NCBI GenBank assembly: GCA_019058295.1
Contig: JAHPZI010000023.1
Coordinates: 12,766-76,765 of the forward strand
Reading direction: 5' to 3'
Origin: Promethearchaeota archaeon
GTDB lineage: Archaea > Asgardarchaeota > Lokiarchaeia > Sigyniarchaeales > SOKP01
DNA length: 64,000 bases
The number at the start of each line of letters is the position of its first letter. Position 1 is the stretch's first letter. Shown here in pieces: positions 18,062-26,194 of this stretch. The notes below the pieces were generated by a model, which was not told where the DNA came from, searched no databases, and worked only from the letters and a program-made list of their open reading frames with translations. The translations under genes were made by a program, and so were the position numbers.

Positions 18062-19387
18062 ATGAGTAAATCAATAGTTTCTATTGGTAAGTATGAAAAA
18101 CCGTTTGAGTCTGTCAAGAAAGTTATTGAACTTGCGAACGGACTTGAAAATTTACCATCTAAAGCCAAAGTATTTATTAAACCTAATATCGTATATTGGA
18201 ACCGACATTGCACTATTCCAAAATGGGGTGTTCTGACAACTTCTCGAGTAATGGAAGATGTCGTAGCTTTGCTTAAAGAAAAAGGGATTGAGGACATAAT
18301 CATTGGCGAAGGGATTGTCAAAGAAGACCCGAAAGATAAAGAAACAGCCGCTGATGCTTGGGAAAAACTTGGATATAATAAACTTATTGATAAATATGGT
18401 GTTAAGGTATATGATTTATTTGAAAGACCTTATGAGAAGATTGATCTAAACACAGGATTTAAGACAAATTTTAGTTCTGATGCTCTTAATGCAGATTTTC
18501 TAATTGATATTCCTACTCTTAAGACGCATGCTCAAGCCATGGTTAGTTTGGGCCTCAAAAATTTGAAGGGTTTAATTAGTGTTGCATCTCGAAAGAAATT
18601 TCATAATGCTGACCCCGTAAAAAATCTTGATCATAATGTTGCTCAACTCGCAAATAAAATACCTCCTTCTTTAACAATTATAGATGGGATTTATACTCTT
18701 GAAAGAGGTCCCGCCATTGATGGAAAAAGTCATAGAAAAAATATTCTTGTTGCATCATCAGATATATTAAGTGCTGATATGGTTGGAGCAAAATTGTTAG
18801 GTGTCGACCCTTCAACCGTCCCATCTTTAATCCAAGCAGCAAAAGATCGAAATAGACCTACAGATTTATCCGATGTTGAAGTAGTTGGAGAAAAGATAGA
18901 AAATCTGGCGTCTCATCATGAGTGGGATTTTAAATATAATGAAGCAGATGATTTACCCCTTCCTTTCCAGAGAGCGGGTATAGAAGGTATAAAATATCAT
19001 AAATATGACTCAACCATGTGTACATACTGCAGTGGCATGAACGGACTGATTTTAATAGCTATTAAAATGGCTTATAGGAAGTCTAAACCTTTTGATAAAG
19101 TCGAAGTGTTATCTGGTAAAGTTATGACACCCACACCTGGAAATAATAAAACTATTCTATTTGGGCAATGTCAATATAATTTGAATAAAGATCATCCAGA
19201 GATTAAAGAACTGATTTCAATTCCAGGATGCCCCCCTTCAAGGGAGGCTATACAAGAGGCTCTTCAAAAAATTGGATTAAAAGTTCCTAAATCTTTTTGG
19301 GAGAATTTAGATAAAGCCCCAGGATGGTTAATGCAGAAATTTAAAGGGAAGCCAGAATTCGAGGAATCTTTTTTTCAAATTCAATAA
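18062..19387 (+). CDS. DUF362 domain protein with C-terminal Cys cluster
   Basis: IKPN, IGEG, LKTH, SLGLKNLKG, IDGI..E.GP; C-terminal CTYC, GQC, GCPP. Confidence 0.85.
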   Translation: MSKSIVSIGKYEKPFESVKKVIELANGLENLPSKAKVFIKPNIVYWNRHCTIPKWGVLTTSRVMEDVVALLKEKGIEDIIIGEGIVKEDPKDKETAADAWEKLGYNKLIDKYGVKVYDLFERPYEKIDLNTGFKTNFSSDALNADFLIDIPTLKTHAQAMVSLGLKNLKGLISVASRKKFHNADPVKNLDHNVAQLANKIPPSLTIIDGIYTLERGPAIDGKSHRKNILVASSDILSADMVGAKLLGVDPSTVPSLIQAAKDRNRPTDLSDVEVVGEKIENLASHHEWDFKYNEADDLPLPFQRAGIEGIKYHKYDSTMCTYCSGMNGLILIAIKMAYRKSKPFDKVEVLSGKVMTPTPGNNKTILFGQCQYNLNKDHPEIKELISIPGCPPSREAIQEALQKIGLKVPKSFWENLDKAPGWLMQKFKGKPEFEESFFQIQ

Positions 19388-19436: not shown

Positions 19437-20366
19437 TTAAATTTGCGATTTTTCGCTATCTTTCTTTAATATTAAAATTTCATTTAATCTGTCGGTATAA
19501 ATTTTAACTCCCTCGTTATCATTAATATCATAGCAAACGTCTATAATTCTAGAGTACTTATTTATTGCTTTTTGAAAATTCTTTTTATCAAGTTCTTCTT
19601 GAGCTTCCTTTAGCAAATCTTGTATTAATTTTTTTGATTTTTGAATATGATCAACGCTTTTCTTCTCAATTGTTTTTACATCTGCATGAAATATCTCTAT
19701 TAATATAGATTCTATCTCTATAATTAATTCATAAATTCTTTTAGGATTATTAGAATCCCAATTTGAATAGGTAATAGCTTTTTCCCAAAATTTATCTATA
19801 TCTCCATCAAATAATTTAATGATATCTAAAGGAATGTTTAATTTAGGTTTCTCAGGATAATCAGTAAAATCTAACCCTATAATAAAATGTTCATCCAAGG
19901 TAATAGATAAGTAAACTAAAGCATTAGTAATTGAATCTATAAATTCCGTTTGAAAATAATACATTAAATCCTTGGCTTCGCGAGCAATTAGAACTTCTTT
20001 ATCAATAAGTTGCACAGTTTCCTCCTTTACTTCAACTACCTCTTTCTCAACTGGAGGGGCTTCCTCAATGATTTCAATTTCAGGGGGTTCCTCTTTCTTA
20101 ATTGGAGGTGCTTCCTTAACTGGGGCTGGTTCTTTGACAACTCTTTCTCTCGGTTTTATTATAGTTTTTTCTTTAACTTCAGCTATTTGTTGCAATATCT
20201 CTCTTAATTCGTTTTCCAAGGTTAATTTATTAGATTTAAATTCATCAAGAGGTATCGCTCCTTGTTCCAATTGTTTTTTCAAATTTTGAATGGTGATGAC
20301 AATTTCTTTAACTCTTGATTTTAATTGTTGTATATTTTTTAATATTTCCTCTTCACTCAATCTCAC
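19437..20366 (-). CDS. Multidomain protein: helical hairpin, Pro/Glu-rich linker, UBC/UEV-like domain, MIT/TPR-like helices
   Basis: 309-aa ORF. Its GTG start overlaps the upstream gene's TGA (GTGA at 20366-20363). E2-fold hallmarks LIAREAKDL, DYPEKPKL and NWDSNNPKRIYELIIEI. Domain calls are inferred. Confidence 0.6.
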   Translation of the reverse strand: MRLSEEEILKNIQQLKSRVKEIVITIQNLKKQLEQGAIPLDEFKSNKLTLENELREILQQIAEVKEKTIIKPRERVVKEPAPVKEAPPIKKEEPPEIEIIEEAPPVEKEVVEVKEETVQLIDKEVLIAREAKDLMYYFQTEFIDSITNALVYLSITLDEHFIIGLDFTDYPEKPKLNIPLDIIKLFDGDIDKFWEKAITYSNWDSNNPKRIYELIIEIESILIEIFHADVKTIEKKSVDHIQKSKKLIQDLLKEAQEELDKKNFQKAINKYSRIIDVCYDINDNEGVKIYTDRLNEILILKKDSEKSQI

Positions 20367-21409
20367 TTTTCACCTGAATTAATTTTTTTTTTAACCATTT
20401 TTTCAAATCCTATTGCATTAGAAAAACTAGGATCTTCAACCTTAATAATTCTACTTAAATCTATATCACCAACTAAATTATTTTCTAATATTAAAATCTC
20501 AATTTCAGTCCAAAAAATATCCAAAGCTTCACCTGCTAAAATAAAATATTCGATTTCTGCATCTAATGGTAAATTTCTTATCAAATCAATTAAAATATTG
20601 ACAATTTCAGTTGAAATTTGACGGATATAATATTTTTTTATTTCACTAATATCGTATGATTTTCCAGAGATTTGAACTTGTTCTTTATTGTCCCTTATGC
20701 TCTGTAAGATTGAATGAGGATTAACAATGTATCCTGTTTGTTCCTCTAGGGCAAGAGAGATTTTATTAGATAAAACAAATAATGAAGCATTTGTTAAATT
20801 TCGGGAGGCATTTCGAATCAATTTTCCATCAAAGATAATTAAGATTTCTGTTAATAGATCTAAAGAAATTACCACAGCATCTAATGCGGTATCTAACTCA
20901 GCACTTGAAATCACGTCATAATAAGTACCATAAGATTCAGGCATAACTAAAACCTGCTTAATATTAATTTTTTTAGTTATTATGTCCTTTGTTGCTTCAT
21001 TTTTAATTTTAATCTCAAATTCGCCTTTTAGCTTAGCACTTAATTCCTTCATCTTTTCTATAGTTGTAGAAACTGGAACGCCTATTCCAAGAATAAATTC
21101 CTCCTCATCATTCTCGGAAATTAATGGCAAGACTGATTTAATCAACAAGAAAATTTCATCAGTCTTTTTAAGATGTGCTTGATCTAAGAGATAATGTTTA
21201 ATTTCGCTCTGAGTTCGCGCTAATTCACCTATATAATATTCCTTATCGGTTTCTATGAGAATAAGATTATTTTCCCAACTTTTATCTACCGTTAAATCTC
21301 CCCATCCTGTAGGATCACTAGAACCAATTACATTAGGAATCGATAATTTGATAGATTCGCTAGAGAATTTAATATTCCCTCCTATATCAATTCCTATACC
21401 TAAAATAAT
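20363..21409 (-). CDS. ParM/StbA-like actin-fold protein, degenerate (putative pseudo-ATPase); probable ATT start
   Basis: The frame stays open 87 codons upstream of the tracked start (21148), reading IILGIGIDIGGNIKF...GW....DKSWENNL...YYIGELARTQSE, collinear with the neighbouring actin. It is bounded by an in-frame TGA at 21412-21410, and the extension has no ATG/GTG/TTG. Confidence 0.85.
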   Translation of the reverse strand: MILGIGIDIGGNIKFSSESIKLSIPNVIGSSDPTGWGDLTVDKSWENNLILIETDKEYYIGELARTQSEIKHYLLDQAHLKKTDEIFLLIKSVLPLISENDEEEFILGIGVPVSTTIEKMKELSAKLKGEFEIKIKNEATKDIITKKINIKQVLVMPESYGTYYDVISSAELDTALDAVVISLDLLTEILIIFDGKLIRNASRNLTNASLFVLSNKISLALEEQTGYIVNPHSILQSIRDNKEQVQISGKSYDISEIKKYYIRQISTEIVNILIDLIRNLPLDAEIEYFILAGEALDIFWTEIEILILENNLVGDIDLSRIIKVEDPSFSNAIGFEKMVKKKINSGEK

Positions 21410-21601
21410 TCAAGCACCAATTTTTTACGATATTTCAAGCGAATATTCAATAATTATAAATAGTAATATTTGTATAAATAACAAATGTATGATAAAAATA
21501 AAAAATATAATATTAAAAGTAATTAATGTAATTATAAATATAAATTTGAAAAAAAATTCAAAAAAACTAACTATTATCTAAAATTTATAAGGTGAGAAAT
21601 A
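21410..21601. promoter_or_regulatory. Putative bidirectional promoter between the two actin genes
   Basis: Very AT-rich spacer. TAATTATAAATA occurs at 21451-21462 and 21529-21540 (TATA-like on both strands). AAGGTGAG precedes ATG 21602; GGTG precedes ATT 21409 on the minus strand. Confidence 0.5.
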
Positions 21602-22639
21602 ATGGAAGATTCTTCAGAAAGATTATATATCGGTTGCGACTTAGGTACGAGTACAATAAAGCTCTCGTGTGGAGACACAAAATTCTTAATCCCATCTTTA
21701 ATTGGTGAACCAAATCCCGGCTGGTCTGGTGCGTCCTTTGATAAAAGTCTTGAGAATAACTTAGTCATAACTGAAGGGCGAGATTCTTATTATATTGGAG
21801 AATTAGCTCGAATGCAATCGGAAGTAAAACGTGCTCTTGCGTCTGATGGACAGATGAAATCTGCCGAAGAGACTTATATCGCATTAAAGGCAGCATTAGG
21901 GTTATTCATCGATAATGATGGTCAAGATGTTATAGTAGCAACGGGTGTACCAGTGGCTACTAGTATGGGAGTAATGAAAAATTTGAGTAAAATGTTAAAA
22001 GGAAATCTTGAGATAAATGTAAAAAACGACGCCACTGGCAAAACTAAACGACTTAATGTAAACATCGAAAAATGTTTGGTATTGCCAGAGCCTTATGGTA
22101 CTTACTATTCTACATTAAAAGAAAAAGGAGAAGAAACAGCTGTCGACACGGTACTAGTTGATATAGGACATGGAAGTACCGATATTTTGACAATGTATCA
22201 AGGTCGCCCTATGCGAACTGCATCCGGCTCTATGCGTGAAGCGACAGATACACTCACAAACCGGATGGCAAGTGCTCTTCAGGAAAAAACAAATCAAATC
22301 GTTAAACCTTTTGATTTAATGACTATAATTAGACAGCAAAAAGAAAGTGTATTGATTGGAGGGCAAACTTATTCTATTAAGAGCATCAGAGATTTTTATG
22401 CAAAACAAATTGCAAAAGTGATGGTTGACGAAGTCATGAGATTGATAACTACTTTACCTCCGGATGCTTTCGTAGAATATTATATAATTTGTGGTGGTGG
22501 AGCCTATACATTTGGAGAAGCCATTAAAGAGGCTATTATTGAGGGTCATTTAGTTACTACTGACGAAGCTGTTATCATTCCAGAAGATCCTGTTATAAGC
22601 AATGCTAGAGGATTCGAGCTTATAGCCCAATCGCAATAA
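21602..22639 (+). CDS. ParM/StbA-family actin-like ATPase
   Basis: All five actin-fold motifs: phosphate-1 GCDLGTSTIK, connect-1 VLPEPYGT, phosphate-2 VDIGHGSTD, adenosine ICGGGA, connect-2 PVISNARGF. Confidence 0.92.
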   Translation: MEDSSERLYIGCDLGTSTIKLSCGDTKFLIPSLIGEPNPGWSGASFDKSLENNLVITEGRDSYYIGELARMQSEVKRALASDGQMKSAEETYIALKAALGLFIDNDGQDVIVATGVPVATSMGVMKNLSKMLKGNLEINVKNDATGKTKRLNVNIEKCLVLPEPYGTYYSTLKEKGEETAVDTVLVDIGHGSTDILTMYQGRPMRTASGSMREATDTLTNRMASALQEKTNQIVKPFDLMTIIRQQKESVLIGGQTYSIKSIRDFYAKQIAKVMVDEVMRLITTLPPDAFVEYYIICGGGAYTFGEAIKEAIIEGHLVTTDEAVIIPEDPVISNARGFELIAQSQ

Positions 22640-22808: not shown

Positions 22809-24059
22809 GTGGGAGAAAAATCACCTCAAGATAATGTTAATAAGCTTGAAGACACCGTAAAAAAAGCATTGGATGGTTTTTCCGGAACAGACTCTGGGAC
22901 GGATACCGACCTTTCGAGTTTAGAAGGTGTAGTACAAAATGCATTAACTGAATTAACCGATTTAGAAAATAACTTATTAAATGTTATCTCCCCATCAGCA
23001 GGTAGTCAAGAAGACAAGGATAGCAATTACTTATTAGCAGTCAGACGATTACAAAACGCAATGAAAGTAGCGCTTTTAGATGGTGCGAGGAAAAAAGATT
23101 TAAAAACATTCGAAGAGGGTTTTAATTTCTATAATAATGCCCTTGAAATAATAACTGCTACAGGGATTCAATCTGAAATAGATCAAGTAATGAGTGAATT
23201 TGCCCAAACACTTATAAAGATAATAACCAAACCTGAAAATATTAAAAATCCTGAGTTTAAACCTTTTGCGTTTAAAGCTTGTAAAAATTTAGCGGAAATT
23301 TATGATTATTTTAAAAACTTTGAAATTAGTGGCAAATTTCATAATCGCGCCGGAGGTTTAATCTCTGATAATCCTCTCATCGCAGAATTAGAGTATTTTC
23401 AATCAGTTATTGACTATATTCTCCTGAACGATCTAAACAAAGCAAACGAACAGACTTCAAAGCTAAAATTTAAACATATTGTAATTTTCGCAAATGACCT
23501 AACAAACGCAATTAACGAATCTAAACCAGAACTTATTGAGCAAATTAAAACTAAAATCGAAGTCTTAGCAGCTCAAAAGGGATTTAAACCTAAAAATATT
23601 CTTTTTTTGCTAAATTTGATTAAAGATCGAATTAAAGATTCCAGCGGAAAAGTAACTGCGCAAACAATAAAAGCACCATCCGATGTTGTACCGTTATCTA
23701 AAGAAAAAATAGAAGCTATCAAAGATTCCTTGACACAAGGAATTCAATCACTTCAAGAAGCCTATCCTGAGCTCGAAAATCCAGCGGCTGCTCAGATTGA
23801 TACCAGTGAAATAATTTCTGAATTAAAAGAAGTTATCTCAACCGAAATTAGTAAAGAAGTAAAATCCCTTTCAAGCGACATCGTATCCAAAATCCTGAGC
23901 AATCTCCCCCGAGGTGGAATGGCATCTGGTCCCAGATATGCTGGAACTATTTCCGACGCAGATAGGCCTGATATTGAAATTGTTGAAGGTGGCCCAAGAG
24001 AAAAACCTCAAAGACCTAAGTTAGATGATATGCTAGATTCTGTAATCGTTAGCGAATAA
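22809..24059 (+). CDS. Hypothetical helical protein (alpha-SNAP/TPR-like core, disordered tail with terminal amphipathic motif)
   Basis: 416-aa ORF, GTG start; TPR-like helices in the centre; Gly/Pro-rich tail ending RPKLDDMLDSVIVSE. Confidence 0.65.
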   Translation: MGEKSPQDNVNKLEDTVKKALDGFSGTDSGTDTDLSSLEGVVQNALTELTDLENNLLNVISPSAGSQEDKDSNYLLAVRRLQNAMKVALLDGARKKDLKTFEEGFNFYNNALEIITATGIQSEIDQVMSEFAQTLIKIITKPENIKNPEFKPFAFKACKNLAEIYDYFKNFEISGKFHNRAGGLISDNPLIAELEYFQSVIDYILLNDLNKANEQTSKLKFKHIVIFANDLTNAINESKPELIEQIKTKIEVLAAQKGFKPKNILFLLNLIKDRIKDSSGKVTAQTIKAPSDVVPLSKEKIEAIKDSLTQGIQSLQEAYPELENPAAAQIDTSEIISELKEVISTEISKEVKSLSSDIVSKILSNLPRGGMASGPRYAGTISDADRPDIEIVEGGPREKPQRPKLDDMLDSVIVSE

Positions 24060-24088: not shown

Positions 24089-26194
24089 TTAACTCGTTTT
24101 GAAATGTTGTTGCGGTTGAAAGATAGATAAATTTAGATCTTCAAATCTATTAGAATCACAAATTTCAGTAAACCATGTATAATCAGTATTAGGTTTCATT
24201 TGGTTACGAGAATCATTTATCCACGCGGAATTCTTATTTAATCCATAACTAGGCATAAGAAACGATAGGAAAAACATATTGTCGTAGAAATATAGATTGT
24301 GAAAATCAGTGTAATTAGAATTTCCTTCAGAAACCCAATTTAAATAGTATCCGTTTGCATTAGAAAGCTTATCTAGCGTAGACCATTTGGTATAGAAGGG
24401 CTTTTTTATATCTTCTGCTACTTCTCCAGTAGGAAAATATGAGATTTTATCCTTGTTTGCTAAATAGGCATTTAAGAGGTTATTATGAGATTTAAGGATT
24501 CTCGACTTTGATCGCTTCTCTCCATTTCGATAATTTACTGTAATGTTATATTCTCCATCTTCTAAGAATCCATTTCTATCAAATCCGACATATCTAATTT
24601 GATCCATATTCAACCTATCAACAACATATCCATTTCCATTCTTAAAATCGAAAGGCTCATTAAAGACCTTAAATTCATAACTATTTGGTCCTTGGACGAT
24701 AATATTGTCAATAATATTTGTAAATTTTTCTCCAAATAAGCCACGAAACATTGCTTCAAATCTAGTTTGCTTTTTTGGCATATCGCTGCTATTTTCACCA
24801 TTATCAAAATATGTTTGGCTTACAATTATATTATCTAGTGTTGGTATTGTCTCAGTTTTAACATCTTCATTAAAAAATGACTCTTCAAATTCATTAAATC
24901 GGTGCCAATATCTCATTCCATGTAAAAGTGGAATTTTCTCAAGGTTAGCAAGATATTCAGGATTTACATTTATTCCAGCTTTATGAAGAGCTTTTGTTAT
25001 GTTTTCAAGTTTTGGAGGGCAGCCTTTTATAGCTATAAGTTCTTTAATGTCTGGATTATTTCTATGTTTATTAAACATACATTGACCTAACAAAATTGTC
25101 TTTTTTTTCCCCGTAGGATTCATTCTTTTTCCTGTAAGAACTTCTATATCATCCCAAGGGTTTCCAACCCATGCAAAATTAATTGCTTCGAGTACTCTGC
25201 TAGTAAGCATAGAGCAATATGTACATAAGGAATTATCATAATTCCAATAATATATCCCCTTTACTCCTCGGTGTTTAAAAACTCTTGGCATTGAACCATC
25301 TTCAGTATAGGGGAATTTATATTCATGAAAATCTTGAACTTTCTCAATTTTTCTCCCTATAATCTCAACATCAGAAAAATCTATCGGTCTATTATTGGAT
25401 TCCGCATAATATTTAAGGTATCTGACGTCTGAGGGATCATAACCAAGAATTTTTGCTCCTACCTTATCAGCTGAAAATATATCAGAAGAAGCTATAATGA
25501 GATCTTTTCTTCTCATTTTTCCATCATAATTAGGGCCTCTTTCATTGGTATAAATTCCATCTATTACTGCGGCACTAGGAGGAAGTTTATTAGAAAGATG
25601 GGAAATAAAAAATTCAAGATCTTTTTCTGTGTCTGCGGTATGGCATTTTTTTCTTGAATTCACATCGATTAATCCCTTTAAATTTTTTAGAGCCAAACTT
25701 ACTTTGGTTTGAGCATGGGTCTTAAGAACTGGTATACTAACGATAAAATCGCTATATAAGGCATCTGTATTAAAATTTAAATCAATCCCATCACCTAAAT
25801 CGACATTCTCAAAAGACCTCTCAAAAACGTTGATTACCCTTATGCCGTGCCTTCTTATAAATATATTATAACCCAAAGTTTCAAACGCATGACGAGGAGT
25901 TTCAAAGTCTTTAGGATTCATTACGATAATACCCTCACCAATCGTAATATCAGAAATTCCTCGTTCTTTTAACGCAATTATTGTATCCTCAACAACACGA
26001 GAAGTAGTCACTACACCATATTTTGGATAAAAAGGTTCACATGACCAATAAACAATATTAGGTTTTAAAAATACTTTCTCATTTCCAGATAAATTTTCAA
26101 ATGCATTTGAAAGGTTGATAGCTTTACCTACAGATTTAATTTTGTTTCTATAACGTACAATTGCAACACGATGCTTATCCATGGTAAACCACAC
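24089..26194 (-). CDS. DUF362 domain protein with Cys cluster and ~250-aa C-terminal extension
   Basis: LKPN, IGEG, LKTH, LKNLKG, CTYC, GQC, GCPP; paralog of 18062..19387. Start is likely ATG at 26182. Confidence 0.85.
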   Translation of the reverse strand: MWFTMDKHRVAIVRYRNKIKSVGKAINLSNAFENLSGNEKVFLKPNIVYWSCEPFYPKYGVVTTSRVVEDTIIALKERGISDITIGEGIIVMNPKDFETPRHAFETLGYNIFIRRHGIRVINVFERSFENVDLGDGIDLNFNTDALYSDFIVSIPVLKTHAQTKVSLALKNLKGLIDVNSRKKCHTADTEKDLEFFISHLSNKLPPSAAVIDGIYTNERGPNYDGKMRRKDLIIASSDIFSADKVGAKILGYDPSDVRYLKYYAESNNRPIDFSDVEIIGRKIEKVQDFHEYKFPYTEDGSMPRVFKHRGVKGIYYWNYDNSLCTYCSMLTSRVLEAINFAWVGNPWDDIEVLTGKRMNPTGKKKTILLGQCMFNKHRNNPDIKELIAIKGCPPKLENITKALHKAGINVNPEYLANLEKIPLLHGMRYWHRFNEFEESFFNEDVKTETIPTLDNIIVSQTYFDNGENSSDMPKKQTRFEAMFRGLFGEKFTNIIDNIIVQGPNSYEFKVFNEPFDFKNGNGYVVDRLNMDQIRYVGFDRNGFLEDGEYNITVNYRNGEKRSKSRILKSHNNLLNAYLANKDKISYFPTGEVAEDIKKPFYTKWSTLDKLSNANGYYLNWVSEGNSNYTDFHNLYFYDNMFFLSFLMPSYGLNKNSAWINDSRNQMKPNTDYTWFTEICDSNRFEDLNLSIFQPQQHFKTS

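Follow-up and report, generated by a model that had tools for sequence, protein, structure and literature searches.

A non-catalytic UBC-fold protein encoded beside a pair of ParM-like actins in Lokiarchaeia, a candidate adaptor of an actin-like module

Which cellular system is served by an archaeal protein that joins a helical hairpin, a proline-rich linker and a cysteine-less UBC-like fold, and whose gene directly follows an actin-fold gene? This question is raised by an open reading frame in a contig of a member of the Lokiarchaeia (Promethearchaeota archaeon, assembly GCA_019058295.1, contig JAHPZI010000023.1), of which we analysed one stretch of 64,000 nucleotides, here called the window. 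A first-pass annotation, made from the sequence alone, had read the protein as a reshuffled ESCRT-I/Vps23 toolkit and had considered its coupling to an actin-fold gene unexpected. In eukaryotes, UEV and RWD domains serve as connectors in ESCRT-I and the Fanconi complex, at kinetochores and in GCN2 signalling. To our knowledge almost nothing is known about the roles of non-catalytic UBC-fold domains before eukaryotes. The following features of the window are relevant; strand is given in brackets.

19437..20366 (-): target gene, 309 aa, with hairpin, linker, UBC-fold domain and three-helix bundle (open reading frame, homologs, AF2 model)
20181..20354 (-): antiparallel helical hairpin, residues 5-62, turn G36-x-I38, steadiness-box/CdvA/SHOCT-like (AF2, VIA, hhalign)
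20025..20165 (-): disordered Glu/Pro/Lys-rich linker, residues 68-114 (pLDDT < 50, composition, alignment gaps)
19689..20033 (-): non-catalytic UBC-superfold domain, residues 112-226, alpha-beta4-alpha-alpha (domain model, VIA, Foldseek, hhalign)
19443..19679 (-): three-helix MIT/TPR-like bundle, residues 230-308 (AF2, VIA, Pfam, hhalign)
20363..21409 (-): actin A, 348-aa ParM-like pseudo-ATPase paralog (open frame, motif alignment, conserved N-terminus)
21410..21601 (no strand): divergent AT-rich spacer of 192 bp with three TTATAAAT boxes
21602..22639 (+): actin B, 345-aa intact ParM-type actin-like ATPase, divergent to A (Pfam, motifs)
22809..24059 (+): 416-aa helical protein downstream of actin B (synteny, alignment)

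Architecture of the target protein

The target reading frame starts with GTG and is real, conserved and not a product of chance: about 30 full-length homologs with identities of 39-92% are encoded in Promethearchaeota, Lokiarchaeota and Helarchaeota assemblies, and a search over 1.84 billion cluster representatives returned 60 matches. The strings that the first-pass annotation had quoted were all located where it had placed them: IQNLKKQLEQGAIPLDEFKSNKLTL at residue 26, LIAREAKDL at 126, DYPEKP at 169, LLKEAQEELDKKNFQKAINKY at 251 and IYTDRLNEI at 289. Its four-part anatomy is borne out by an AF2 model of the whole protein calculated with the family alignment (mean pLDDT 77.8), in which a hairpin (residues 5-62), a disordered stretch (68-114), an alpha-beta4-alpha-alpha domain (112-225) and three helices (230-308) follow each other. 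Invariant or nearly invariant positions of the family alignment fall into two clusters, one at the hairpin turn (I38, L40, F43) and one in the UBC domain with the signature A-x-E-A-x-D-L-M-Y-Y-F-Q-T-E-F ... Y-L-S-I-T ... Y-P-x-x-P ... W ... P-x-x-I-x-E-L. Searches with the whole protein told us little about its relatives. In Pfam and NCBIfam scans, the whole target, fragments from both of its ends and 38 homologs yielded sub-threshold noise only (histone-fold, syntaxin, DUF7801, MIT at 15 bits), a profile search against PDB sequences gave only designed helical repeats and the MIT domain of calpain-7 at E 0.7, the full-length model had no informative match in Foldseek (best E 0.1), and the ESM Atlas contained no usable match.

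The central domain was much more informative. Folded alone (residues 108-232, with 38 diverse homologs as input), it reached a pLDDT of 92.4 and a pTM of 0.82, and DSSP assigned to the model the order H-E-E-E-E-H-H-H, that is a helix, a four-stranded beta-meander and C-terminal helices. In a VIA search of about 48,000 representative PDB chains, which is independent of Foldseek, the best 50 matches were all UBC-superfold structures (E2, RWD or UEV). The top match was the VPS37A UEV-like domain (8e22; Z 9.7-10.2, rmsd 2.8-2.9 over 101 residues); RWD domains as a group reached 8.4-9.1, with RWDD1 at 9.1 and the GCN2 RWD at 8.8, and further scores were 9.0 for a Plasmodium E2, 8.8 for FANCL, 8.2 for the TSG101 UEV and 8.0 for the Vps23 UEV. 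Foldseek matches of the domain model were all E2s or FANCL, with a best E of 0.011. Since Z values of 8-10 are middling, the assignment to the UBC fold rests on the uniform match list, the nearly full coverage and one transitive profile match. The latter leads through larger Asgard proteins (P0046, P0054, P0063) that carry a copy of the domain between Pfam UQ_con and Pfam RWD domains: hhalign aligned the target domain with the N-terminal domain of P0046/P0054 at 92.5% probability (E 4.8e-7, 94 columns), and this N-terminal domain is itself detected by Pfam UQ_con at 4e-12 and 46 bits. No Pfam family matches the domain directly in the target or the 38 homologs, Pfam RWD (PF05773) gave nothing at E <= 1 in these sequences, and Pfam UEV (PF05743) gave nothing at E <= 1 across the whole genome. 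The 3.3% obtained by hhalign with a first RWD comparison set is no evidence against an RWD relationship, as this set was badly delimited.

The domain lacks the marks of an active enzyme. Residues 108-232 contain no cysteine (C278 is the sole cysteine of the whole protein), no alignment column has cysteine in more than 3 of the 38 homologs, and the HPN motif is absent. On the other hand, the YPxxP loop (Y170-P171-E-K-P174) is present with an invariant P171 and Y170 and P174 conserved to at least 90%, and the E2-like W...P helix motif is retained (W203, P208). The presence of YPxxP and W...P together with the loss of HPN and of a conserved cysteine indicates an E2 variant or a binding module of RWD-like type rather than an enzyme. 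The first-pass annotation had named a different fold at residues ~120-230 as the result that would speak against it; the model (pLDDT 92) with its uniform E2/RWD/UEV matches is the cysteine-less UBC-like fold that it had expected. The E2 signatures it listed are present as well, but the tryptophan and proline are spaced as W203-x4-P208 rather than W-x3-P. Other Asgard proteins (P0046, P0054, P0050) combine homologous domains with UQ_con, RWD and a RING-like Cys/His cluster. In Lokiarchaeia this subfamily of UBC-like domains has found wide reuse, as triple UBC-like proteins and as fusions with longin or with RING-like parts.

For the N-terminal hairpin, the structural comparison is less specific. 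VIA placed it next to the headpiece hairpin of Vps23/TSG101 with Z 9.2-10.0, where 2f66_A was the top match (rmsd 2.0 over 65 residues, 22% identity) and 2p22, 2caz and 6vme were further headpiece structures. Nearly tied were CdvA (Z 9.9), the Ost1 domain of Prometheoarchaeum (9.8) and designed hairpins (about 9), and helical VIA matches with a Z under about 13 may be generic. Pfam Vps23_core did not match the target orthologs in the genomes G000, G056, G058 and G060, while in G056, G057 and G058 this model scores other genes above its cut-off. Pfam SHOCT gave no match at E <= 10 in the hairpin fragment or at the locus in the genome; with only 28 positions, this model has little power. Against an Asgard steadiness-box profile built from ten segments detected by the Pfam model, hhalign scored 31.0 at 78.8% probability with the turn in register, compared with 22.7 for the reversed profile and 10.3 +/- 2.0 (maximum 16.7) for column-shuffled controls. 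Judged from these profiles, the signal appears real but modest; it fits a common type of hairpin and is no proof of ESCRT-I membership. The hairpin thus resembles the steadiness box of Vps23 weakly. The annotation had offered a Vps23/TSG101 steadiness box or a SHOCT motif here: the hhalign probability of 79% and a Z of 10 speak for the former, but Pfam matches neither, and generic hairpins score nearly as well.

The linker between hairpin and UBC-fold domain is rich in glutamate (12/47 residues) and proline (9/47), and with EPAP at residue 79, EAPP at 85 and 102 and EEPP at 92 the Pro/Glu-rich stretch described earlier is indeed found in composition and motif positions. Its length is variable, and in the shortest orthologs (252-256 aa) it is nearly absent, so that it is a spacer rather than a conserved proline-rich binding region.

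The C-terminus had been described as MIT- or TPR-like. A three-helix bundle is found in the model, but the MIT assignment stays below threshold and designed bundles tie with it: VIA gave Z 9.2 for the MIT domains of NRBF2 and katanin, with designed bundles and TPR proteins scoring equally, and Pfam MIT (PF04212), whose cut-off is 30 bits, reached 14.3-15.4 and covered only model positions 6-34. With 22 Asgard Vps4 MIT domains, hhalign gave 18.7% (score 21.4; shuffled controls at most 17.1). In other members of the family this bundle is replaced. P0037 has hairpin, linker and UBC fold followed by two predicted transmembrane helices; the ortholog in G021 is divided into a separate 118-aa reading frame for the hairpin and a 320-aa remainder, which is identical to P0038 and also ends in two predicted transmembrane helices. 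In a diverged type of paralog (P0030, P0043, P0076), the hairpin and the beginning of the UBC fold are retained and the rest is changed. The exchange for transmembrane helices and the pattern in the paralogs indicate an invariant core of hairpin and UBC fold, and a C-terminus that serves as an exchangeable targeting module.

The actin pair and the four-gene module

The GTG of the target overlaps the stop codon TGA of actin A (GTGA), and a Shine-Dalgarno-like motif, GGTGA, lies just upstream of it. The target is translationally coupled to actin A. The coupling to an actin-fold gene, which had seemed unexpected in the first reading, is real and conserved, and it is the most informative feature of the locus.

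Actin A might be mistaken for an N-terminally truncated actin, and with the 261-aa gene call Pfam ALP_N and MreB-like_C stay below threshold. The short call is an artefact of demanding ATG, GTG or TTG as start codon: 348 aa are open, and three species have preserved the N-terminus, IILGIGIDIGGNIK, the changes in its codons being synonymous. Behind the upstream stop the frame opens with ATT here and with ATC in two sister species. Actin A is a full-length protein whose start codon is probably non-canonical. In an alignment of 8 actin A with 6 actin B orthologs, the phosphate-1 motif of actin A is of the DIG-GNIK type in all 8 genomes and one residue shorter than DLGTSTIK of actin B; phosphate 2 reads SLD(L/Y)-(L/I)TE in A versus IDIGHGSTD in B, and the adenosine motif (A/T)GE(A/G/W) in A versus GGGA in B. 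Due to these degenerate phosphate-1, phosphate-2 and adenosine motifs in 8/8 genomes, we regard actin A as a conserved pseudo-ATPase. Actin B matches Pfam ALP_N (2e-17) and MreB-like_C (2e-11) as well as the NCBIfam ParM and PRTRC_D models. Its nearest solved relative is Dh-cParM1 (8x1i, E 6e-9), and its closest solved relatives as a group are chromosomal and plasmid ParMs.

Downstream of actin B follows the 416-aa helical protein, for which we found no Pfam family and a weak SNAP/TPR lead (0.85). A hairpin matching that of the target was sought inside it and is ruled out by hhalign (<= 0.4%). Behind a low-complexity linker, this protein ends in a nearly invariant peptide, RPKLDDMLDSxIVSE. ParR and arcadin-2 dock onto their cognate actins via C-terminal peptides of this kind (PMC5173319). 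By analogy, RPKLDDMLDSxIVSE could dock onto actin B or onto the bundle of the target.

The genomes G005, G021, G058 and G060 share the arrangement target <- pseudo-actin A | actin B -> 416-aa protein. Target and actin A are also present in G007, where the contig stops within the start of actin B, and in G056, where 1.5 kb separate the two and the contig breaks off shortly beyond actin A. The neighbour of actin A in G013 is a diverged paralog of the target, while the closest ortholog lies away from the actins, so the linkage is not absolute. The flanking genes are of housekeeping type and differ among genomes: in the window they encode DUF362 proteins and oxidoreductases, in G060 methenyl-H4MPT cyclohydrolase, Endo dU and radical SAM. 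As the flanks vary, the four genes are a conserved unit. No ESCRT or ubiquitin-system gene (E1, E2, E3, ubiquitin) was adjacent in any locus that we inspected, and neither vps28 nor vps22 nor other ESCRT genes stand beside the target in the window, G060 or G058. A mobile-element or viral origin of the module was considered and is without support, given that no relatives were found in viral contigs and the housekeeping flanks lack mobile-element hallmarks.

Full-length orthologs of the target (E < 1e-38) occur in 8 of 61 related genomes, which are exactly those with actin A. They belong to four families, and 8/8 overstates the support because the genomes are related. Even so, the pattern across several families implies repeated joint gain or loss. 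When the survey was widened to 400 genomes of the phylum, full-length orthologs were found in 11, again in four families and all within the class of the window.

Proposed role and competing readings

We hypothesize that the target assists an actin-like module of Lokiarchaeia as an adaptor or tether, a reading that we hold to be somewhat better than an even chance. It is suggested by the combination of an invariant core, an exchangeable C-terminus and the coupling to actin A. The protein, which is restricted to one class (the Lokiarchaeia including Helarchaeales-like lineages), would be an accessory subunit of an actin-like cytoskeletal module made up of four genes. Its hairpin may serve self- or hetero-association, as in steadiness-box and CdvA hairpins, and the flexible acidic and proline-containing linker would connect it with the UBC-fold domain, which may bind pseudo-actin A or a polymer of A and B. 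With an exchangeable targeting module at its C-terminus, a soluble bundle here and two transmembrane helices in other members, the protein could tether or cap the filament system and link filaments to a partner or to the membrane.

Three other roles have to be weighed against that of an adaptor or tether. The protein could be a rearranged ESCRT-I/Vps23-type subunit that couples ESCRT to an actin-like filament. Taken together, a true steadiness box in a headpiece, a UEV with ubiquitin or P(S/T)AP-like motifs as ligands and a MIT domain that binds ESCRT-III tails make up a reading that we judge unlikely. The best structures per segment are ESCRT-related (VPS37A UEV-like Z 10.2, 2f66_A Z 10.0, MIT Z 9.2), the hairpin aligns with the Asgard steadiness box at 78.8%, above reversed and shuffled controls, and non-canonical multidomain steadiness-box proteins are numerous in Asgard genomes (PMC10936438). 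However, CdvA and designed hairpins score on par with Vps23, Pfam Vps23_core finds other genes (G056, G057, G058) and never the target orthologs, Pfam UEV has no match anywhere in the genome, and MIT stays at 14-15 bits against a cut-off of 30 and at 18.7% in hhalign. The order in the model, hairpin, linker, UBC fold and bundle, is the reverse of UEV-Pro-coil-SB in TSG101, as the annotation had seen, and opposite to that of Vps23 and of Asgard UEV-Vps23 (10.1101/2023.07.25.550441). Moreover, no ESCRT or ubiquitin gene neighbours any of the loci, and the gene is found in just 11/400 genomes of a phylum in which ESCRT is widespread. The toolkit reading of the first pass is not supported, given the reversed order, the lack of such neighbours and a distribution that tracks the ParM-type actin pair. 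Membership in ESCRT-I is unsupported, and what is left is in all likelihood a structural echo at best.

Alternatively, the target could be the cargo adaptor of a ParMRC-like segregation machine that links filaments of actins B and A to DNA or other cargo, as a functional analogue of ParR or of a kinetochore RWD protein. Actin B belongs to the ParM family with chromosomal and plasmid ParMs as nearest solved relatives, an adaptor gene directly 3' of an actin gene recalls parMR operons, RWD domains recur as kinetochore modules (PMC6601020), and the distribution is patchy. Nevertheless this role, with both its analogies, is improbable in our view: neither the target nor the 416-aa protein has a DNA-binding domain in Pfam or NCBIfam, viral contigs hold no relatives, the flanks are of housekeeping type without the hallmarks of mobile elements, and the transmembrane variants suggest a membrane rather than DNA as cargo. 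The 192-bp spacer contains no iterated centromere-like repeats, and a parC-like centromere in it is without support. Non-catalytic E2 variants such as Mms2/Uev1 are partners of an active E2, and the target might likewise be a partner or regulator of an active Asgard E2/E3, its place next to actins being incidental. We consider this very unlikely. The fold does match both E2 and UEV, and homologous domains share proteins with UQ_con, RWD and a RING-like cluster (P0046, P0054, P0050), but genes for E1, E2, E3 or ubiquitin are not nearby, co-occurrence with and translational coupling to actin A are strict, and only 11/400 genomes carry the gene although the ubiquitin system is widespread in the phylum.

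A bolder version of the adaptor hypothesis would take the four genes as an Asgard cytomotive machine. An active and a dead ParM-type actin would form a heterofilament in an Arp-like logic, coupled to membrane or ESCRT-type partners by the adaptor with its steadiness-box-like hairpin and UBC fold and by the SNAP/TPR-like protein with its docking peptide. As a whole we think this rather unlikely. If true, it would provide a prokaryotic precedent for non-catalytic UBC/RWD domains as couplers of cytoskeleton and cargo, as they are in ESCRT-I and kinetochores.

Relation to known systems

We rate the target as a putative non-catalytic adaptor of UBC fold that is new both in its architecture and in the genes it is partnered with. 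In the papers on Asgard archaea that we consulted we found neither a protein composed of hairpin, UBC fold and bundle described nor a ParM-type pair of an active and a dead actin with such partners. The significance of the finding is that the gene of a UBC-fold protein shares a conserved operon with a pair of ParM-type actins in those archaea that are most closely related to eukaryotes, and that the four-protein system allows UBC-type domains to be studied as cytoskeletal adaptors. The module also bears on how a pseudo-ATPase actin may cooperate with an active paralog outside eukaryotes. It is patchy (11/400), on present evidence it is not the ancestor of a specific eukaryotic complex, and its function is deduced from context only.

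Compared with ESCRT-I, the target shares with the VPS37A UEV-like domain and the UEV of TSG101/Vps23 a non-catalytic UBC fold without active-site cysteine, and with TSG101/Vps23 also a helical hairpin and a proline-rich linker. It differs from ESCRT-I UEVs in the missing match at sequence level (Pfam UEV and Vps23_core negative) and the reversed order, and it adds a three-helix bundle and adjoins ParM-like actins instead of ESCRT genes. Asgard UEV-Vps23 itself has the eukaryotic domain order and sits in ESCRT loci (10.1101/2023.07.25.550441; PMC9192718). Makarova et al. 2024 described many patchy Asgard proteins that join the steadiness box with other domains including TPR (PMC10936438). The target is similarly Asgard-specific and patchy and combines a hairpin with other interaction domains, while its hairpin is missed by the steadiness-box model and the families described there are tied to ESCRT loci.

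With canonical RWDs (GCN2, RWDD1, RWDD2, the FANCL DRWD and kinetochore proteins) the domain shares the alpha-beta4-alpha-alpha order, the YPxxP loop between beta3 and beta4, Z values of 8.4-9.1, a non-catalytic protein-binding role and the frequent joining to coiled coils. In contrast to them, the family has YPxxP and not YPxxxP, it retains the E2-like W...P, and Pfam RWD misses all 38 members. Tromer et al. mentioned one RWD-like sequence from Asgard archaea (PMC6601020). Among actin partners, the ParR of ParM, the arcadin-2 of crenactin, Alp7R and MamJ are likewise small non-enzymatic proteins encoded adjacent to and co-transcribed with an actin-like gene, and the conserved C-terminal peptide of ParR and arcadin-2 has its counterpart here on the 416-aa partner. 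None of these four proteins is known to have a UBC fold, however, and the Lokiarchaeial module is distinguished from all of them by two actin paralogs, one of them a conserved pseudo-ATPase, with two different partners.

Start codon of the pseudo-actin gene

The pseudo-actin gene that belongs to the four-gene module with the UBC-fold protein (window 20363-21409, minus strand) is devoid of ATG, GTG and TTG across its first ~87 codons. The codon directly after the upstream stop is ATT in the window and ATC in the related genomes G005 and G007. Because none of the three codons is available in this stretch and the N-terminal 87 residues are kept with synonymous changes, the sequence comparison suggests that the gene uses a non-canonical start codon. 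Standard ORF callers will shorten it to 261-299 amino acids.

Flanks of the module and a conserved C-terminal peptide

The module is enclosed by two oppositely oriented DUF362 paralogs that share about 51% identity over 440 amino acids, and the 416-aa helical protein within it ends in a near-invariant peptide:

18062-19387, plus strand: DUF362 paralog 1, on one side of the module
24012-24056, plus strand: peptide RPKLDDMLDSxIVSE, C-terminus of the 416-aa protein
24089-26194, minus strand: DUF362 paralog 2, on the other side, with a C-terminal extension of ~260 aa

In each of the four orthologs whose C-terminus is complete, the peptide comes after a Gly/Ser/Pro-rich linker. It is a candidate motif for docking to an actin groove or to a helical bundle.

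Variants of the UBC-fold protein and its domain in other proteins

Genome G013 encodes two paralogs of the UBC-fold protein (G013:C17:19773-20582 at locus L032; G013:C29:72549-73361 at L021); the diverged one, in a 420-aa frame, adjoins the pseudo-actin gene, while the one nearer to the window's protein sits away from every actin gene. The variants P0037 and P0038 carry two predicted transmembrane helices where the C-terminal bundle would be. Hairpin and UBC-fold part are separate ORFs in G021, and in G058 a single TAA separates hairpin from domain (six-frame match).

L026:280-1242, minus strand: P0038, with L026:1377-1733, minus strand

The same domain type recurs in other lokiarchaeial proteins. 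P0046, P0054 and P0063 (570-620 aa) contain three consecutive UBC-like domains: one that is UQ_con-like, one of the same type as in the window's UBC-fold protein, and a Pfam RWD domain. Such proteins are near-ubiquitous in Lokiarchaeia, with 550-620 aa frames in most of 61 relatives. A longin/roadblock-like domain lies N-terminal to the UBC-like domain in P0044, P0047 and P0061 (~250 aa) and in P0057, P0058, P0065, P0074 and P0080; this fusion is backed by weak Pfam longin matches, and the domain is clearly visible in alignment A2. The 403-aa protein P0050 combines UBC-like/RWD domains in tandem with a RING-like Cys/His-rich cluster at its C-terminal end, a layout reminiscent of FANCL with its double RWD plus RING.
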